A stretch of 64,000 bases of DNA from Candidatus Phycocordibacter aenigmaticus (GTDB lineage Bacteria > Patescibacteriota > Minisyncoccia > Phycocordibacterales > Phycocordibacteraceae), in contig CP174359.1 in the NCBI GenBank assembly GCA_045401115.1, forward strand, positions 483,247 through 547,246. Reading direction: 5' to 3'. This document shows, piece by piece, positions 151 to 59,845 of the stretch. How positions within the stretch are numbered: the stretch's first letter is position 1; each line of letters begins with the position of its first letter. The notes beneath the pieces were generated by a model. The model was not told the origin of the DNA. It made no database searches and saw nothing but the letters and a program-made list of their open reading frames with translations. Both the position numbers and the translations under genes were made by a program.

Positions 151-1131
151 ATGAAGCAAAAAGTGGTTGCAGTATTACGCGGCGGGAAAGGGGATGAGCA
201 TTCTATATCACTTCAATCAGGCGCAGCGATATTACGAGCTCTTTCAGCTCAACAAGAAGAAAGGCAATATTCAGTTGTCGATATTTTTATTGACCAAAAC
301 GGCACGTGGTATGTGCGCGGAGCACCACGTGATCCGTTGCGCGCACTCACTGGTGTTGATGTAGTATGGAACGCACTACACGGTTCTTATGGAGAAGATG
401 GTACAGTGCAACGCATTCTTGATTGCTCCGGAATCCCTTATACAGGCTCAGGATCATATGCTGCTATGGTGAGTTTTAATAAAGCATTAACCAAGCGCAT
501 GCTTGCATCTCAGGACATTCTTATGCCACGCTCAGTTACGTTAGAAGTAACACCTAATCTTGAAAATGAGATACTGACTCAGTTTCGTACATTTTGCCAA
601 CCTTCTATTATTAAACCGGTTGGATGTGGCTCTTCGTTAGGAGTAACGTTAGCGACATCTTTCGATACATTTAGAGAGGGTATTAAAAATGCTTTTAACT
701 ATGCCCCTCAGGTTCTCATTGAGGAATATATATATGGCAAAGAGGCGACATGTGGAGTTATTGATTTTTTTCGGGGACAACATCCATATATACTTCCTCC
801 TGTCGAGATAATGCTTGAAAACAAAGATTCATTTTTTAATTTTGATACAAAATATAACAACAATACATTTGAGAGATGTCCCGGTAATTTTTCTTCAAAG
901 GAATCAGAGCGGATAAAAGATGTTGCCCGCACGGTGCATACTACGCTCGGTCTCCGGGACTATTCGCGGAGTGATTTTATCGTTTCTCCTCGAGGAGTGT
1001 ATTTTCTTGAAGTGAATGCATTACCAGGTACCACTGGAGAATCACTATTTCCAAAATCCCTGAAGGCAGTAGGGAGTTCTTTAGAAGAATTTATCATACA
1101 TGTGCTGGACCTTGCGCTCAAAAGAGGGTAG
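151..1131 (+). CDS. ddl: D-alanine--D-alanine ligase (ATP-grasp)
   Basis: 326-aa ORF. N-terminal Ddl motif 'VAVLRGGKGDEHSISLQSG' and a C-terminal ATP-grasp region 'FLEVNALPGTTGESLFPKS'. Stop TAG at 1129-1131 confirmed by hand. Confidence 0.85.
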   Translation: MKQKVVAVLRGGKGDEHSISLQSGAAILRALSAQQEERQYSVVDIFIDQNGTWYVRGAPRDPLRALTGVDVVWNALHGSYGEDGTVQRILDCSGIPYTGSGSYAAMVSFNKALTKRMLASQDILMPRSVTLEVTPNLENEILTQFRTFCQPSIIKPVGCGSSLGVTLATSFDTFREGIKNAFNYAPQVLIEEYIYGKEATCGVIDFFRGQHPYILPPVEIMLENKDSFFNFDTKYNNNTFERCPGNFSSKESERIKDVARTVHTTLGLRDYSRSDFIVSPRGVYFLEVNALPGTTGESLFPKSLKAVGSSLEEFIIHVLDLALKRG

Positions 1132-1133
1132 GG

Positions 1134-1139
1134 TATAAT
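1134..1139 (+). promoter_or_regulatory. Candidate -10 box (TATAAT) reading into the tRNA locus
   Basis: Perfect TATAAT immediately after the ddl stop, about 20 nt upstream of the tRNA-like sequence. The matching -35 would lie inside ddl and was not convincingly identified. Confidence 0.2.
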
Positions 1140-1159
1140 CGTATCACCCGTTCATTAAT

Positions 1160-1262
1160 GGGCCCTTGGCGCACAGTTGGCTGGGGGTGAAGAAAGCCTG
1201 GGAGGCTTTCGAACCATTTGCACATAGTGCAAATGAGGCACATTTTCGAATATATTGAATTT
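1160..1262 (+). other. Degenerate or rearranged tRNA-Ala-like sequence (possible tRNA pseudogene or structured RNA)
   Basis: 'GGGCCCTTGGCGCACAGTTGGCT' mimics the acceptor and D-arm of the downstream tRNA-Ala ('GGGCCCTTAGCTCAGTTGGCT'). It is followed by a 'GGGGGT...TTCGAACC' T-arm-like segment carrying a roughly 21-nt hairpin insertion (AAAGCC-TGGGA-GGCTTT), then the anticodon-region string 'CATTTGCAC' within a perfect palindrome (CATTTGCAC-ATA-GTGCAAATG). There is no 3' acceptor strand, so it does not fold as a canonical tRNA. Confidence 0.3.
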
Positions 1263-1284
1263 GTGTATGTTACTTTATCGGTAT

Positions 1285-1358
1285 GGGCCCTTAGCTCAGT
1301 TGGCTAGAGCGCCTCATTTGCACTGAGGAGGTCGGGGGTTCGAGTCCTCTAGGGTCCA
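1285..1358 (+). tRNA. tRNA-Ala (anticodon UGC)
   Basis: Cloverleaf read by eye. Acceptor GGGCCCT/AGGGTCC, D-arm 'AGCTCAGTTGGCTAGAGC', anticodon stem CCTCA/TGAGG with loop TTTGCAC (anticodon TGC), T-arm 'GGGGGTTCGAGTCCTC', discriminator A. CCA is not fully encoded (sequence continues 'CAG'). Confidence 0.9.
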
Positions 1359-1366
1359 CAGAAATA

Positions 1367-1396
1367 AAAACCCAACACGAATGTGTTGGGTTTTTT
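1367..1396 (+). terminator. Rho-independent terminator after tRNA-Ala
   Basis: 'AAAACCCAACACGAATGTGTTGGGTTTTTTCT': a 9-bp GC-containing stem followed by a T-run. Confidence 0.7.
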
Positions 1397-1598
1397 CTAT
1401 TTCGTAAGACCCTAGAGGACTCGAAAGACGGAGCCGTGGGCCCCCATTGTGCGGAGTTCCTGGCACAATGGGGCGGCGAGTCCGGGCAGGAGGTCGTTAT
1501 GAGCGGAGCGAATTACGAACCTGAGGCCGAGTCCTCTACCGATACGAACCAGCAAAAAGTCCACTATTCTTGGACAATCCTCTAGGGTCCACCATTGC

Positions 1599-1632
1599 CA
1601 AAATATCCCGAGTTTTTGCTCGGGATATTTTT
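1599..1632. terminator. Terminator-like perfect hairpin (possibly bidirectional)
   Basis: 12-13 bp perfect stem 'AAATATCCCGAG/CTCGGGATATTT' with loop TTTTTG, flanked by A/T runs on both sides. Confidence 0.45.
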
Positions 1633-1767
1633 GTAATGTAGGGATGCTTGGTAGAGGACTCGAAAGACACACCACAAGGGCACTTCTTGTTTTGGAACTT
1701 GACGTCGAGTCCTCTGGAATTCATCAGTATGAATTGACTTTTTTATAATTTATTATATACATATAGT

Positions 1768-1926
1768 ATGTCTGAAACTAGAAAAGAAATGCCGCTCACC
1801 GGTTTCGGGGGATATTATGAAGAATATCCTGATAGTTCAGATACACCTCTTGTAGAAGGAGGTGTCCTTCAAGCAATTATTGAGTATCTAAAATCAATAG
1901 TTGCAAATGACAACAGGCCCACTTGA
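1768..1926 (+). CDS. Small hypothetical protein (52 aa), below the ORF-track threshold
   Basis: Hand-translated: MSETRKEMPLTGFGGYYEEYPDSSDTPLVEGGVLQAIIEYLKSIVANDNRPT*. No obvious ribosome-binding site and no recognisable family. Confidence 0.2.
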   Translation: MSETRKEMPLTGFGGYYEEYPDSSDTPLVEGGVLQAIIEYLKSIVANDNRPT

Positions 1927-2088
1927 TCCTGATAAACATTGTTTTTAATGAGAAACAAAAAACGCCGTAATTTTTATAAAAAGGTTATTGGCAAAGAATC
2001 TTAGGTTATATACCGGTGCTTTAGTAGATGTTGATTACCGTATTTTTCAAGCAAAAATAAGGTACTATAAGAAGTATATACAGCATTA

Positions 2089-4464
2089 GTGCAAAAGATA
2101 CTTATTTCTATGGAAAAAATTGTTTATTTTACGTTTTTATTTTTAATACTTTCTTCACCTCAATCAGTGTTTGCAGTAAATTGTGTGACACTAGATAATA
2201 ACTTGTATCTTGGTGCGCGAGATAATAGCGTTGTGCTTTTGCAGTCATTCCTAGAATCAACAGGAGATTACACAGAGACACCAATTCATGGTTATTTTGG
2301 TCTCGCGACACAGCGCGCCGTAGAACACTTTCAAAAAAGAAACGGGATTGTCTCAGGTGGTAATCCAATAACAACCGGATATGGTGCTGTAGGGCCTGTA
2401 ACAAGAAAAGCAATAAACGAATATTGTTTAAATACAACATCTTCAGTTGATGTGTCTTCAACACCTGACATCACTGTGTCAACGTCATCAGTAACCCCTG
2501 CTCAATCACTGTCTCCAAGTACGAGCGAACTACCTATTACAAGAACACTCACTATGCGTTCTAGAGGGGTAGATGTACAAGCGTTGCAGGAGTTTTTAAA
2601 GAAAGAGGGGGATTATACATATCCTGAAGTGACCGGTTATTTTGGTCCGGTCACACAAGAAGCAGTACAAAAATTTCAAGCACGCACCGGTATTGTAAGC
2701 AGCGGTTCGCCCCAAACAACAGGCTATGGACTCGTTGGTCCTTCCACTCGTCGCGCATTAGCGCAAGCAATGTCGGAATCAACATCAACAGGACCTTCCT
2801 CAGTGAGCGTAGCAGATTCTACACCGCAGCCAATCAATATTACACCCACCACGCCGCCTATAGACCCGATCTTGCCTCCCGAACTTGATGTGCAAGTACA
2901 ACTCACTACTTCCTCATCTATTGCTGCTGCAGGAGAATCAATAAAATTTACTTGGATTTCAGATAGTGCGCTAGTGTGTAGCCAGCCAATACGAGCGAAT
3001 GAAAAAGGGAATATTGATTGGCATAAGCACCTTAAATACTCAAAGGGTCAGACGCAAGGGTCAGCAATGGTCGTACCATATCCACTTCCGGAATGGCAAG
3101 ACTTTAATGGAGCTGCGCGATATGAATGGATGATTGGTTGTCGTGGATTTTTAAATCCTGATCAAGTTGTAACCTCAGCGGTTCCTATTGAATTTAAAAA
3201 AGAAGAGCCGAAAGCAGGCTTAGACGCGCACCTTACTTCTGGTGAGGCTCCACTGACGGTTAATTTCTCTGCTAATCTTGAAGAAATTTTAGGAACACAG
3301 CGTGGCGGAGCTATTGAGTTAGATTTCGGTGACGGACAGATAGGTACGCTATGTAAAACATATTCGTCTGGTGTAGCCGCGTGTACACCTTCATGGATAG
3401 GGTCACATGTTTATAAAGATGCGGGGACCTATGTTGCAAAATTGATATGGCAATATGAATCTGGTGGTTCTTTTATCCTCGACACAGTAAAGATTGTGGT
3501 GAATTCGCAAAAAACTCCTCAGCAAAACCTGATTATTAATGGTTTTAATGTTTATTCTCCCGACATGGTATTGAGGGAAAAGGAATCACTGAAAATGTAT
3601 TTTGGTGGTTGGATGAGTCAAGGACAGCGACACGATGACATCTACCTTGCAGATTGTGTTTGGGATGGTTCGTCATGTTCTAATATTCGCACAGTTATTA
3701 GTGCCACTACGCAAGGTTTTAACCATCTCAACAACCCGTCAATAGTGCGTCTTGTTGATTCTGCAAACACTGGCCGTGCGTATTACATTATGTACCTAAC
3801 TGGTGTTGAGCAAGGTGAAAATGGTTTTGTGCCAGGAAACAATCACCTTTATTATTCAACATCTTGGGCAGATAATGGTGTAAATTGGTCAAAACCTCAG
3901 TTGCTACTAAAAAGTCATTGGCTCCCTTCCGCGATAGTAAAAGAAAATGGCGAAGTTGAATTGTATGCAAACGACAATACTATTCATGGTGGGGTAGTTA
4001 AAATTAATCTCGGTACGTCAGGAGTTAACGTTGGCACTATTGAACGCGTGTCATATGGTACTGAAGGACACTTTGCAAATGTAGATGTTGAATACGATTT
4101 TAATGATAAGCAATATCATATCGTAGCGGAACGTATGGATGCAAAAAGTTCCATCGATAGGTTCACCAGTCGCGATGGTGTTAACTGGAATCTAACGCAT
4201 AAAAAGATTATCAGTGCAGATACTGATCAATATCGTGTAGGAACACCGACCTTCCATCCAAGTAAACGAGAGATACTCTTCTTTGGTTCAACAGCAAAGG
4301 AAAATTCTACAGGCTTTAAAATTCGTTCAATGGATACCACGGGTCTGAATACTTCATTGACCTCTTTCATTAAAGATATAAATGAATTATTTGTGAATGC
4401 ATTTCAACGAGGGGTGAGTTCTTTAGCAAATTCTTTCTCAGCAATTTTATTGATGGGTTGTTAA
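2089..4464 (+). CDS. Secreted multidomain cell-wall-associated protein: signal peptide, two peptidoglycan-binding (PG_binding_1-like) repeats, Ser/Thr/Pro-rich linkers, a PKD-like domain and a C-terminal beta-rich (BNR/sialidase-like?) region
   Basis: N-terminus 'FTFLFLILSSPQSVFA' looks like a signal peptide. Two repeats 'L..G.RD..V..LQ.FL...GDYT....GYFG..T..AV..FQ...GI' at about aa 40-110 and 155-225. PKD-like motif 'LDFGDGQ...HVYKDAGTYVAKL'. BNR-like 'STSWADNGVNWS'. Translation may start at the internal Met at 2110. Confidence 0.55.
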   Translation: MQKILISMEKIVYFTFLFLILSSPQSVFAVNCVTLDNNLYLGARDNSVVLLQSFLESTGDYTETPIHGYFGLATQRAVEHFQKRNGIVSGGNPITTGYGAVGPVTRKAINEYCLNTTSSVDVSSTPDITVSTSSVTPAQSLSPSTSELPITRTLTMRSRGVDVQALQEFLKKEGDYTYPEVTGYFGPVTQEAVQKFQARTGIVSSGSPQTTGYGLVGPSTRRALAQAMSESTSTGPSSVSVADSTPQPINITPTTPPIDPILPPELDVQVQLTTSSSIAAAGESIKFTWISDSALVCSQPIRANEKGNIDWHKHLKYSKGQTQGSAMVVPYPLPEWQDFNGAARYEWMIGCRGFLNPDQVVTSAVPIEFKKEEPKAGLDAHLTSGEAPLTVNFSANLEEILGTQRGGAIELDFGDGQIGTLCKTYSSGVAACTPSWIGSHVYKDAGTYVAKLIWQYESGGSFILDTVKIVVNSQKTPQQNLIINGFNVYSPDMVLREKESLKMYFGGWMSQGQRHDDIYLADCVWDGSSCSNIRTVISATTQGFNHLNNPSIVRLVDSANTGRAYYIMYLTGVEQGENGFVPGNNHLYYSTSWADNGVNWSKPQLLLKSHWLPSAIVKENGEVELYANDNTIHGGVVKINLGTSGVNVGTIERVSYGTEGHFANVDVEYDFNDKQYHIVAERMDAKSSIDRFTSRDGVNWNLTHKKIISADTDQYRVGTPTFHPSKREILFFGSTAKENSTGFKIRSMDTTGLNTSLTSFIKDINELFVNAFQRGVSSLANSFSAILLMGC

Positions 4465-5078: not shown

Positions 5079-5534
5079 TTGACAAATTTGCATTATGTTA
5101 GTATAACATTTTTATATATGAGCTCTGAAAAGTTCACCTCTGCTGCTGAGAGCAGTATGCCAAGATTATGGACAAAGTACGAAGCTCCTGAAAAACGTAT
5201 CGAGCTTATCGTGAAAGGAGAGTGTGTTGGATATGCAATTCTTATATCTCACCAAGAACCGTTTAGGTTCTATTATGTTGATGAAGTTTTTGTCGATAAG
5301 AAAGAGCGGGGGAAATCGTATGGCTCTAAGTTAGTGCGTAAAATAAATTCCTTTTTGGGTAGAAAAAATGCTGCGGGTATCCTTATGAACGCCATACATC
5401 CAGATGATCCTACATATAATTTATATAGTAACTATGGTTGGCAAGAAGTTCCCGAATTTCATGGTTATTATATGTATGGCAGAAAAAACCATCATACAGG
5501 TAAAAAGGTGTGCGAAGCTATAAACAACATATGA
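5079..5534 (+). CDS. GNAT-family N-acetyltransferase (putative)
   Basis: Motif A-like 'VFVDKKERGKSYGSKLV' (R-x-x-G-x-G/S) and size typical of GNATs. Start may be the internal Met (MSSEKF, about 5121). Confidence 0.45.
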   Translation: MTNLHYVSITFLYMSSEKFTSAAESSMPRLWTKYEAPEKRIELIVKGECVGYAILISHQEPFRFYYVDEVFVDKKERGKSYGSKLVRKINSFLGRKNAAGILMNAIHPDDPTYNLYSNYGWQEVPEFHGYYMYGRKNHHTGKKVCEAINNI

Positions 5535-58834: not shown

Positions 58835-59845
58835 GTGGTGCGAAAGGTGTTCACTCGCGCTCTCCCCTTGTACATGTCTATGAAAAAAACTGATGATCAA
58901 AATAAAAATCAACTCCCGTTTATAGATGATTTTTTATTACATATTCAAGCTAATAATTACTCCGAAGAGACGCTCTATAACTACGAACGCGATCTTAACA
59001 CCTTTGCGCATTTCCTTACTCAAGAGCTTAATGCCCTCCCCTTCAGTAAAGTCACAAAACGGACTATTGAACAATTTAAAGCATATCTAAATTCAAATGA
59101 TAGAAAGACAGCGAGTGGCAATGCTCCAATAAAACGACTCAGTAGTGGCACTATTAATCGCAATCTTACCTCATTGCGTCGTTATCTTACTTTTTTGATT
59201 GATATGGATTACGAAACGCCTATCGAACCAAGTTCTATTAAATTACTCCGTAGAGAAAAACCACATCCGCAAGTATCAGAGTTAAAAGAACTCGTTACCC
59301 TTATAGAGTCACCAATGAAATTTGAAAAAAATAAATTGGTTGCACTCAGAAATCGCGCGGCACTTGAGACACTTCTTGCCAGTGGTATGCGTATCTCGGA
59401 ACTCATTTCACTCAAACGAAATCAACTCGACGCATCAGGCAGAATCTTTATTGAAGGTAAGGGTAAGAAGCAACGTTTTATTTATCTTACTGACCGCGCA
59501 AAAAAACATATCGTTCGTTATCTAGAAGAACGTACTGATGACTCCCCCTATCTCTTTGTACCGAATCGTGGACTTAATGCACATGATAAAAATAAACATA
59601 TCTCAGCAAATTATTTACAAATGAAAATAAAGCACTACCGTGAATTGCTTGGTATAAATGTCCCCACGAGTGCTCACTCGCTTCGACATGGCTTTGCTAC
59701 TTATCTTGCTGAAGAAGGTGCTAATCCGGCAGCAATACAAATCCTCTTAGGTCACGAATCCCTTGAAACCACAACACGCTACGTGCACGCGTCTGATAAA
59801 TATGCAGAAGATACTCATAAAAAATTCCATCCACTAAAAGATTAG
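58835..59845 (+). CDS. Tyrosine-type site-specific recombinase (XerC/XerD/phage-integrase family)
   Basis: N-terminal SAM-like core-binding domain; catalytic 'AHSLRHGFATYLAEEGANPAAIQILLGHESLETTTRYVH' (R...HxxR...Y). Coordinates taken from the ORF track (my hand count near the start is off by 1 nt). Confidence 0.8.
   Translation: MVRKVFTRALPLYMSMKKTDDQNKNQLPFIDDFLLHIQANNYSEETLYNYERDLNTFAHFLTQELNALPFSKVTKRTIEQFKAYLNSNDRKTASGNAPIKRLSSGTINRNLTSLRRYLTFLIDMDYETPIEPSSIKLLRREKPHPQVSELKELVTLIESPMKFEKNKLVALRNRAALETLLASGMRISELISLKRNQLDASGRIFIEGKGKKQRFIYLTDRAKKHIVRYLEERTDDSPYLFVPNRGLNAHDKNKHISANYLQMKIKHYRELLGINVPTSAHSLRHGFATYLAEEGANPAAIQILLGHESLETTTRYVHASDKYAEDTHKKFHPLKD

Follow-up and report, generated by a model that had tools for sequence, protein, structure and literature searches.

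Behind the only tRNA gene (ARAGORN) of a 64,000-nucleotide stretch of the genome of Candidatus Phycocordibacter aenigmaticus (contig CP174359.1, positions 483,247 to 547,246; hereafter the window, to which all coordinates refer unless a locus is named), the 3′ segment of that gene, a tRNA-Ala(UGC), recurs in both orientations. We find that these copies are the paired arms of a conserved, covarying and strand-specific structure that is tied to tRNA 3′ flanks and that builds its clamp from the 3′ segment of the tRNA itself and the antisense of that segment. The units share the design of the RtT units of Escherichia coli, although homology between the two is not detectable, and the cluster behind tRNA-Ala is probably, in a judgment that leans only modestly toward it, an array of an RtT-like, tRNA-linked small RNA family. 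The original prediction had offered three explanations for the repeats, namely nested or serial attachment (att) sites, a miniature inverted-repeat element that copied the tRNA end, or a cluster of tRNA-mimicking structured RNA. The paired arms of a conserved element, the covariation, the strand bias and the presence of the element behind tRNAs of 25 anticodons favor the last of these.

The master copy of the repeated segment is the tRNA-Ala(UGC) gene at 1285–1359 on the plus strand (ARAGORN; Rfam RF00005 at 64.8 bits), which encodes C74 after the discriminator (…TCCAC AG, 1356–1359) and not the full CCA. Its segment T54–C71 has an 18-nt perfect inverted copy at 1408–1425, C56–A66 an 11-nt direct copy at 1528–1538, and U60–C74 a 15-nt direct copy at 1578–1592, which is followed by CA, so that a full CCA is encoded at 1592–1594. 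A 13-nt inverted copy, the complement of T54–A66, lies at 1652–1664 within a 17-mer (1652–1668) that is identical to 1413–1429; an 11-nt direct copy of T55–T65 lies at 1705–1715, and a further short copy, CGAGTCC, can be read at 1477–1483. All of the copies listed in the original prediction are present, the last of them as the 11-nt copy at 1705–1715 where 1706–1715 had been given. That prediction was also right that the repeats are not chance: the 12-mer TCGAGTCCTCTA, with at most one mismatch, has five matches in the 64 kb, all within 1340–1716, against a mean of 0.09 and a maximum of 1 in shuffled sequences. The two stem-loops it described are confirmed: the one at 1442–1452/1463–1473 is perfect, with 11 bp, and the one at 1599–1632 is the core of longer arms, 1593–1612/1619–1638, of 20 nt and 90% complementarity.

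A covariance model built from 17 aligned units (R1, describing type-2 units) matches the window at two places, X1 and X2, and nowhere else in it. X1, a complete type-2 unit at 1405–1546 on the plus strand, scores 92.7 bits (E 1e-25) and is itself a seed member. Its 5′ arm is the antisense copy at 1408–1425, it carries the conserved GGACUCGAAAGACGGAG at 1418–1434, and its 3′ arm is the direct copy of C56–A66 at 1528–1538. The arms pair as helix P1 (~1413–1424 with 1528–1538), followed inward by P2/P3 (~1427–1484, with 1442–1473 as the apex hairpin) and P4 (~1485–1528). Folding of the unit and a covariation check across homologues had been proposed at the outset; the minimum-energy fold of X1 as a single sequence reproduces the three-way junction of the family (−64.4 kcal/mol, z −4.3), and the outcome of the covariation check is given below. 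The canonical direct copy of X1 ends after 11 nt and is followed by CCGATACG, a junction common to the window and a related locus, L107, in which a type-2 unit ending in …CGAGTCCCTG-CCCGATACG runs directly into a complete unit of a second subfamily, itself ending in a hairpin and a direct copy that starts at U60. By this likeness and by the repeat itself (direct repeat D3), the plus-strand segment 1547–1594, which contains a hairpin at 1560–1576 (GTCCA-CTATTCT-TGGAC) and then the 15-nt tRNA copy and the CCA, is the remnant 3′ module of a further unit, the assignment of which to a subfamily is uncertain. A second terminator-like hairpin, read directly from the sequence and not reported by a simple terminator scan, follows on the same strand at 1593–1638 (core 1599–1632, inverted repeat I2) with a T-run after it. 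X2, at 1644–1724 on the plus strand (R1 20.1 bits, E 3.7e-4; repeats D1 and D2), is a decayed type-2 unit without P4, which is deleted in its alignment to R1; it has a 5′ arm at 1650–1668 (17 nt of it identical to X1), a 3′ arm, TCGAGTCCTCT, at 1705–1715, and a fold of −25.8 kcal/mol (z −2.5). At 1718–1744 (plus strand) a weak A+T-rich hairpin, AATTCAT/ATGAATT, precedes TTTTTT; the terminator scan did not report this hairpin, and on reading it we regard it as a possible terminator of the array. The order of the array is thus tRNA, hairpin, X1, 3′ remnant, hairpin 1599–1632, decayed X2, and weak hairpin with T-run. G+C content rises to 0.55–0.57 at 1300–1600 against a background of ~0.39, as is typical for structured RNA within an A+T-rich genome. 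The open reading frames (ORFs) that overlie the array (1412–1675 and 1536–1724 on the minus strand, 1436–1585 on the plus strand) have no Pfam match, consistent with the earlier suggestion that the two minus-strand frames are spurious.

Across the family the unit measures ~105–190 nt and follows one consensus order. The 5′ arm is complementary to the tRNA from T54 outward and consists of nine invariant nucleotides, GGACUCGAA, and of positions that follow the local T-stem; in some units it adds the complement of the acceptor, in some of these set off by a small hairpin with a CUGC loop. An "AAA" junction comes next, then P2 (GAC:GUC), which leads through a GGA/GA internal loop to the variable hairpin P3, then "GG," the long hairpin P4 and, immediately after P4, the 3′ arm (CGAGUCC…, the direct tRNA copy). 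Pairing of the two arms as P1 makes the whole a three-way junction. Among 90 distinct sequences, standard pairs occupy 92.2% of the cells, against 68.5% in column shuffles and 31–45% in slid controls, figures that lean toward the structure in that the alignment was fitted to the model, with relatedness kept in the slid controls. Changes on both sides occur in 26 of the 29 pairs, and where shuffles give 188 double-change cells the alignment has 605. Orthologous units behind tRNA-Trp, at L148 and L157, differ in P3 by changes that compensate each other, and the 5′ arm covaries with the local T-stem. A test of strand stability, which is independent of the alignment, gave the better fold to the tRNA-sense strand in 104 of 106 units, by a mean of 8.1 kcal/mol (p ~1e-28), and G-U pairs outnumber A-C mismatches by 91 to 40. 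The strand bias and the G-U excess together indicate that the structure forms on a single strand with the polarity of the tRNA, which would most simply be RNA.

The family is widespread in Patescibacteria (Paceibacteria/Parcubacteria). Beyond the window, R1 matches 135 units in the other Patescibacteria loci that we fetched (16 + 98 + 21), and an exact scan for the 17-mer GGACTCGAAAGACGGAG (window 1418–1434) located it at no fewer than 120 metagenome contig loci, mostly 54–60 nt downstream of a tRNA of any identity, including Leu, Gln, Trp, Ile, Ala, Val, Lys, Asp, Arg and Met. Sixty-three of 114 analyzed units lie at most 130 nt downstream of a tRNA on the same strand, covering 25 anticodons; 12 of the others follow another unit, 15 stand at a contig end, and 24 are outside these classes. 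The distribution is nevertheless patchy, since in loci picked by ddl, the gene for D-Ala-D-Ala ligase (Ddl), and so independently of the element, 8 of 58 tRNAs bear a unit. Distant relatives (Ddl 37–57% identical) show a layout after tRNA-Ala like that of the window, with first a terminator-like hairpin, then an inverted copy of the 3′ part of the tRNA that ends in GGACTCGAA, ~100–150 nt of G+C-rich sequence and a direct copy of the tRNA 3′ end, and in each of them the copies match the local tRNA sequence. The family is uncatalogued, in that no Rfam 15 family detects it: a search of the window region at E up to 10 returned the tRNA and noise only, 12 unit-rich loci searched at the Rfam gathering score gave only tRNA family matches, and full-text literature searches that included the conserved 14-mer as a search word turned up no description of it. 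Units other than those modeled by R1 also exist, among them a "type 1" (GGACUCGAAG … GUACUG-hairpin-GARAU-UCC…). At L101 (~5160–5450, minus strand) the 3′ half of a tRNA (…GGTTCGAGTCCCTGTCGGGCAGC), at a place where ARAGORN calls no tRNA, is followed by a unit whose 19-nt direct copy is perfect; the tRNA gene there may be split, one possibility being an intron such as those reported for Patescibacteria.

How closely the arms follow each tRNA is seen at 61 distinct tRNA-unit junctions. In 35 of 46 cases C56 is where the direct copy starts; six copies start at U60 and belong to the second subfamily. In 26 cases the copy runs to the tRNA end, and at 20 of the 61 junctions it measures exactly 19 or 21 nt. 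Contiguous complementarity of the 5′ arm is mostly 11–12 nt long and reaches 21 nt in some units, and a long 5′ arm tends to accompany a degenerate direct copy. Units may stand in tandem, as in the three after tRNA-Asp at L108, the three after tRNA-Phe at L097 and the two identical ones after tRNA-Asn at L016, and arrays at one tRNA may mix subfamilies (L108, L152 and L107). Apart from one pair at L169, units of the same contig are no more alike (identity 0.556) than units of different contigs (0.539), suggesting that they are old, diverged residents and not the product of a recent burst. That the arms of such diverged units still match the adjacent tRNA exactly requires selection or continuing conversion.

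RtT is known chiefly from the tyrT operon of E. coli, and to our knowledge the function of its design has been unclear since it was described there. In E. coli K-12, which we checked directly, four ~178-nt RtT units follow tyrT and tyrV; each closes with the final 19 nt of tRNA-Tyr, AATCCTTCCCCCACCACCA, and each holds a 22-nt segment antisense to the T-arm and acceptor. In the Rfam consensus (RF00391) the antisense arm pairs with the direct copy as a terminal helix that encloses two hairpins, with a CCACCA tail. The units described here have the same plan. They lie in the tRNA 3′ flank, on the same strand and in tandem, as X1 and X2 do behind tRNA-Ala; they end with a ~19-nt direct copy of the tRNA 3′ end from the T-loop, those of the window at 1528–1538 and 1578–1592 measuring 11 and 15 nt; their 5′ arm, antisense to the T-stem and acceptor, forms with the 3′ copy a terminal helix around inner hairpins; and both bodies are G+C-rich and have two such hairpins. 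In other respects the two differ. They come from different taxa and share no detectable sequence or profile homology: the RF00391 model has no match at E up to 10 in window 1000–2200, and the RtT units, the top R1 matches in E. coli, reach 4.5–5.9 bits (E ~1) with nothing aligned beyond P1. The Patescibacteria element follows tRNAs of at least 25 anticodons, is set apart from the tRNA by a terminator-like hairpin before each unit, has conserved three-way-junction motifs (GGACUCGAAAGACGGAG … CGAGUC-GGGG) and is without a Tpr-like ORF. According to PMC3318445, which cites Bosl and Kersten (1991), one repeat unit of the tyrT operon encodes rttR, a processed small RNA that is released from the E. 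coli tRNA transcript. More recent work describes rtT as involved in processing of the tyrT transcript and as a likely modulator of the stringent response, by a mode of action that is unknown (bioRxiv 10.1101/2024.07.17.603846).

We propose that the unit would be a small RNA of ~105–190 nt encoded on the same strand as the tRNA. Its clamp helix P1, formed by the 5′ arm (antisense to the T-loop, the 3′ strand of the T-stem and sometimes the 3′ strand of the acceptor) and the 3′ arm (tRNA C56 to C74 or CCA), would close the conserved three-way junction of P2/P3 and P4. Transcription could reach the unit by read-through of the terminator-like hairpin or by re-initiation from a start in its T-rich descending arm. 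The tRNA-derived clamp and 3′ tail would mimic the acceptor and T-arm of the cognate tRNA, such that the enzymes of tRNA end processing (RNase P, 3′ trimming and CCA addition) might cut out and stabilize the unit RNA, in the way put forward for RtT within the tyrT transcript. A 3′ boundary that falls sharply at C74 or CCA, together with the CCA encoded at 1592–1594, fits such tRNA-like end processing. Arrays may grow through unequal recombination between the 19-nt direct copies, and the arms may stay matched to the neighboring tRNA because P1 pairing is selected, because conversion or palindrome correction keeps renewing them, or for both reasons. By analogy with RtT, the released RNA may have a role in the processing of tRNA operon transcripts or in stress signaling.

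Several observations weigh against this proposal. Transcription of the unit, its ends and its processing are all things that we infer, and the test of strand stability cannot separate RNA from single-stranded DNA. A strong terminator-like hairpin stands between the tRNA and each unit, unlike in E. coli, where RtT lies inside the tRNA transcript. A promoter search upstream of the units gave none that is convincing; TAnnnT hexamers peak ~20 nt upstream of the conserved motif, in a region that is T-rich anyway. Some orthologues, L157 among them, do without the acceptor part of the 3′ copy, and the tendency of long 5′ arms to go with degenerate 3′ copies looks partly like the dynamics of palindromes at the DNA level. 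The clamp behind tRNA-Ala has A3-U70 and not G3-U70, which makes charging by alanyl-tRNA synthetase unlikely. Finally, near-identical tRNA-Val units occur at L117 3954–4102, L140 12906–13038 and L135 1–349 among different neighbors, and the sequence downstream of the L117 unit is found inverted on the other side of the L140 unit, with alignments that overlap within the palindromic arms. These three loci record a strain-level rearrangement with its breakpoints in the arms, which implies that the arms also act at the DNA level.

The terminator-like hairpin is part of a larger palindrome that invites an alternative explanation. In the window, inverted repeat I1 (1339–1425, plus strand) has 32-nt arms that are 84% complementary and folds at −56.9 kcal/mol (z −12.6); it is made of the 3′ quarter of the tRNA from T54 onward, the hairpin at 1366–1395, which the terminator scan reports as terminator-like and which carries an A-tract and a T-tract, and the antisense 5′ arm of X1. 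About 50 related loci have the equivalent palindrome of tRNA, hairpin and antisense, and in nearly every locus the tRNA 3′ quarter, hairpin and 5′ arm make a near-perfect ~40–45 bp palindrome. Such regularity, and the classification of RtT by Rfam as cis-regulatory, would agree with purely cis-acting signals of the 3′ flank, whether strong bidirectional terminators, insulators, or protection or processing of the tRNA 3′ end, with no independent RNA. We consider this rather improbable, as the body of the unit goes beyond a terminator: P2 to P4 form a covarying three-way junction with conserved junction sequence, of which a terminator needs none, and tandem arrays of such bodies are hard to account for by termination alone.

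A second alternative takes the structure to serve its own propagation and not the host, in the form of a non-autonomous DNA element, like a miniature inverted-repeat transposable element (MITE), that inserts at the T-loop or 3′ end of tRNAs with a 19-bp target duplication. The original prediction had listed an element of this kind, and it is a live rival, if an unlikely one. The fixed boundaries of the direct copy, from C56 to the tRNA end, would suit it, as would the resemblance of the inverted arms to terminal inverted repeats, the mixing of subfamilies in arrays at one tRNA (L108, L152 and L107), the patchy occurrence at 8 of 58 tRNAs and the rearrangement breakpoints in the arms. At L169 (2977–6400), moreover, two 96%-identical units with flanking hairpins bracket a 0.9-kb insertion that carries two small ORFs, which by eye are a candidate HicAB-like toxin-antitoxin pair; an intact tRNA-Gln is found 2 kb upstream and pieces of tRNA 3′ sequence mark the junctions, and it is clear from this locus that islands do insert next to units. 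What weakens the transposable-element reading is that within-contig copies, L169 excepted, are as diverged as between-contig copies and show no sign of a recent burst, unlike the many near-identical copies per genome that mark a MITE. In addition, the arms differ with each tRNA and so are not terminal repeats borne by the element (only 9 nt of them are constant, the rest following the local tRNA), no transposase or integrase was found nearby, the element is absent from the viral contigs scanned, and a 19–21-bp target duplication that ends at the mature tRNA terminus would be unusual for a transposase.

The direct copies also bear on the first explanation offered by the original prediction, according to which the repeats are relic att sites left by serial integration and excision of integrase-bearing islands at the tRNA T-loop. 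Downstream of an intact tRNA, a direct repeat of its sequence between the T-loop and the 3′ end is reportedly (Williams 2002, Nucleic Acids Res) the classical identity block of T-loop-type tRNA att sites, for which a tandem arrangement is also possible, and at L169 real islands separate tRNA-Gln from the units and have left fragments of the tRNA 3′ end at their junctions. As a primary explanation, however, serial integration is largely refuted and, in our view, very improbable. The DNA between the copies is a conserved structured unit of only 105–190 nt rather than kilobases of island or its variable remnants, the same unit recurs behind tRNAs of 25 anticodons, and integration does not account for the inverted copies. 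The tyrosine recombinase that had been noted in the window is there, but it is the only one, is Xer-like and lies at 58835–59845, 57 kb from the array; a tblastn search with it against 200 related loci (1.2 Mb) returned no match, and the units are without an integrase. An origin from a phage or island is rejected on the same absence of an integrase homologue in the 200 loci and on scans of viral contigs, which gave no true match and one motif match in total, inside an ORF and without an R1 match.

The strand asymmetry of stability would also fit single-stranded DNA, and with it an arrangement like that of integron attC cassettes, in which folded single-strand DNA would serve as the recombination site, with a core TTCGAGTCC and its inverse GGACTCGAA as the conserved ends of variable palindromes. 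A palindrome does always lie between successive bodies, with ends of 8–9 nt conserved and a center of 9–45 nt variable, and breakpoints fall in the arms. Yet no dedicated recombinase turned up, what would be the "cargo" is a conserved structured module in place of genes, and circular or free forms are not known, and we regard such cassettes as a highly improbable origin of the array.

If the RtT-like small RNA reading is correct, the window holds a member of a large, strongly covarying and uncatalogued RNA family of the Candidate Phyla Radiation, tied to tRNA genes both physically and by sequence, and the family would be a second, independent case of the RtT design, one that greatly exceeds that of E. 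coli in abundance and diversity. With over 130 diverged examples, behind 25 or more tRNA species, that design becomes testable by comparison and by experiment. We also entertain, as a quite improbable extension, that in these reduced, ultra-small bacteria many tRNAs have a dedicated "shadow" RNA made of their own 3′ end and its antisense, matured and CCA-tailed like a tRNA and acting in trans on 3′-end biology, possibly as a decoy or spare 3′ end against nucleases of the T-loop and acceptor or as a sensor of the status of the 3′ end and its CCA. If true, this would be a tRNA-cognate RNA layer not known from any organism, and it would also give the E. coli RtT a function. For annotation, the units account for short spurious ORFs, can be mistaken for att sites of genomic islands, and may account for assembly breaks beside tRNA genes in Patescibacteria genomes. 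The only relatives with 83%-identical Ddl (L204 and L205) lie on short contigs, whose sequence stops 41 and 56 nt past ddl, just before the expected tRNA and repeat region, and these ends may be assembly breaks caused by the repeats.

The 3′ strand of the unit also resembles that of other tRNA-like RNAs, such as the tRNA-like domain of transfer-messenger RNA (tmRNA) and acceptor-T minihelices: it consists of the 3′ strands of the T-stem and acceptor and the discriminator (with CCA at 1578–1594), and pairs with the 5′ strand into a continuous helix of 12–19 bp. The units differ from these RNAs in that they lack a T hairpin, with the body inserted in the position of a T-loop, and lack a tag reading frame; the Ala unit differs also in having A3-U70 in place of G3-U70 in its clamp. 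A tmRNA or two-piece tmRNA, which the CCA at 1592–1594 and a GGACUCGA motif like the tmRNA 5′ region had brought to mind, is ruled out by the same A3-U70, by the lack of a T hairpin and of a plausible tag frame, and by the occurrence of the element after all kinds of tRNA; ARAGORN finds none, and Rfam tmRNA matches in the window region score at most 8 bits (E up to 10). The topology recalls a type I hammerhead ribozyme, but the core motifs of a self-cleaving ribozyme are absent and no Rfam ribozyme matches at E up to 10. Group I introns are excluded by the small size of the units, their position outside an intact tRNA and the lack of an Rfam match; the tRNA introns of Patescibacteria, which are group I introns at position 35/36 (PMC13011429), are a different feature. 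A retroelement primer-binding site, which the 18-nt antisense arm recalls, is rejected in that the arm covers neither the discriminator nor the CCA.

The tRNA-Ala locus is chromosomal, with housekeeping genes on either side and ordinary cellular functions among the remaining genes of the window. The Ddl gene lies upstream at 151–1131, and a gene for a large secreted protein starts downstream of the array at 2089; between the two, immediately past the array, is a 52-aa ORF at 1768–1926 that has no Pfam match. The best relatives of this Ddl among species representatives are from Paceibacteria/Parcubacteria, at no more than 62% identity, and the gene order ddl to tRNA-Ala(UGC) is found again in many Paceibacteria genomes. 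Several of loci L001–L073 have pairs of tRNA-Ala isoacceptors in opposite orientation (divergent or convergent), UGC with CGC or GGC. Among the tRNA genes listed from related contigs, C almost always comes directly after the discriminator, as it does in the direct copies of these genes.

Fragments derived from the tRNA also lie upstream of the gene, on the plus strand at 1160–1239 (repeats D4, D5 and I3; exact matches): 1160–1182 resembles the tRNA-Ala 5′ end (positions 1–21), 1215–1223 is a direct copy of its anticodon loop, and 1226–1239 is a perfect 14-nt antisense of its anticodon arm. This segment is probably a decayed "upstream" relative of the unit, as we judge from weak homology. Intact upstream variants with an X-like body and partial R1 matches without P1 occur at L058 4922–5055 and L068 5700–5840 (minus strand), where a direct copy of tRNA 1–24 is followed by the X-like body, a copy of the anticodon stem and loop with its complement, an A+T-rich spacer and the intact tRNA. 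At L057 (7176–7439, minus strand), a small gene for a GIY-YIG nuclease (PF01541, E 1.5e-18) lies between a duplicated tRNA 5′ fragment of 13–26 nt and the intact tRNA; an ORF that by eye is similar lies upstream of tRNA-Gln at L058, and L113 is grouped with these loci. The tRNA genes of these genomes appear to be hot spots for insertion, with part of the gene duplicated.

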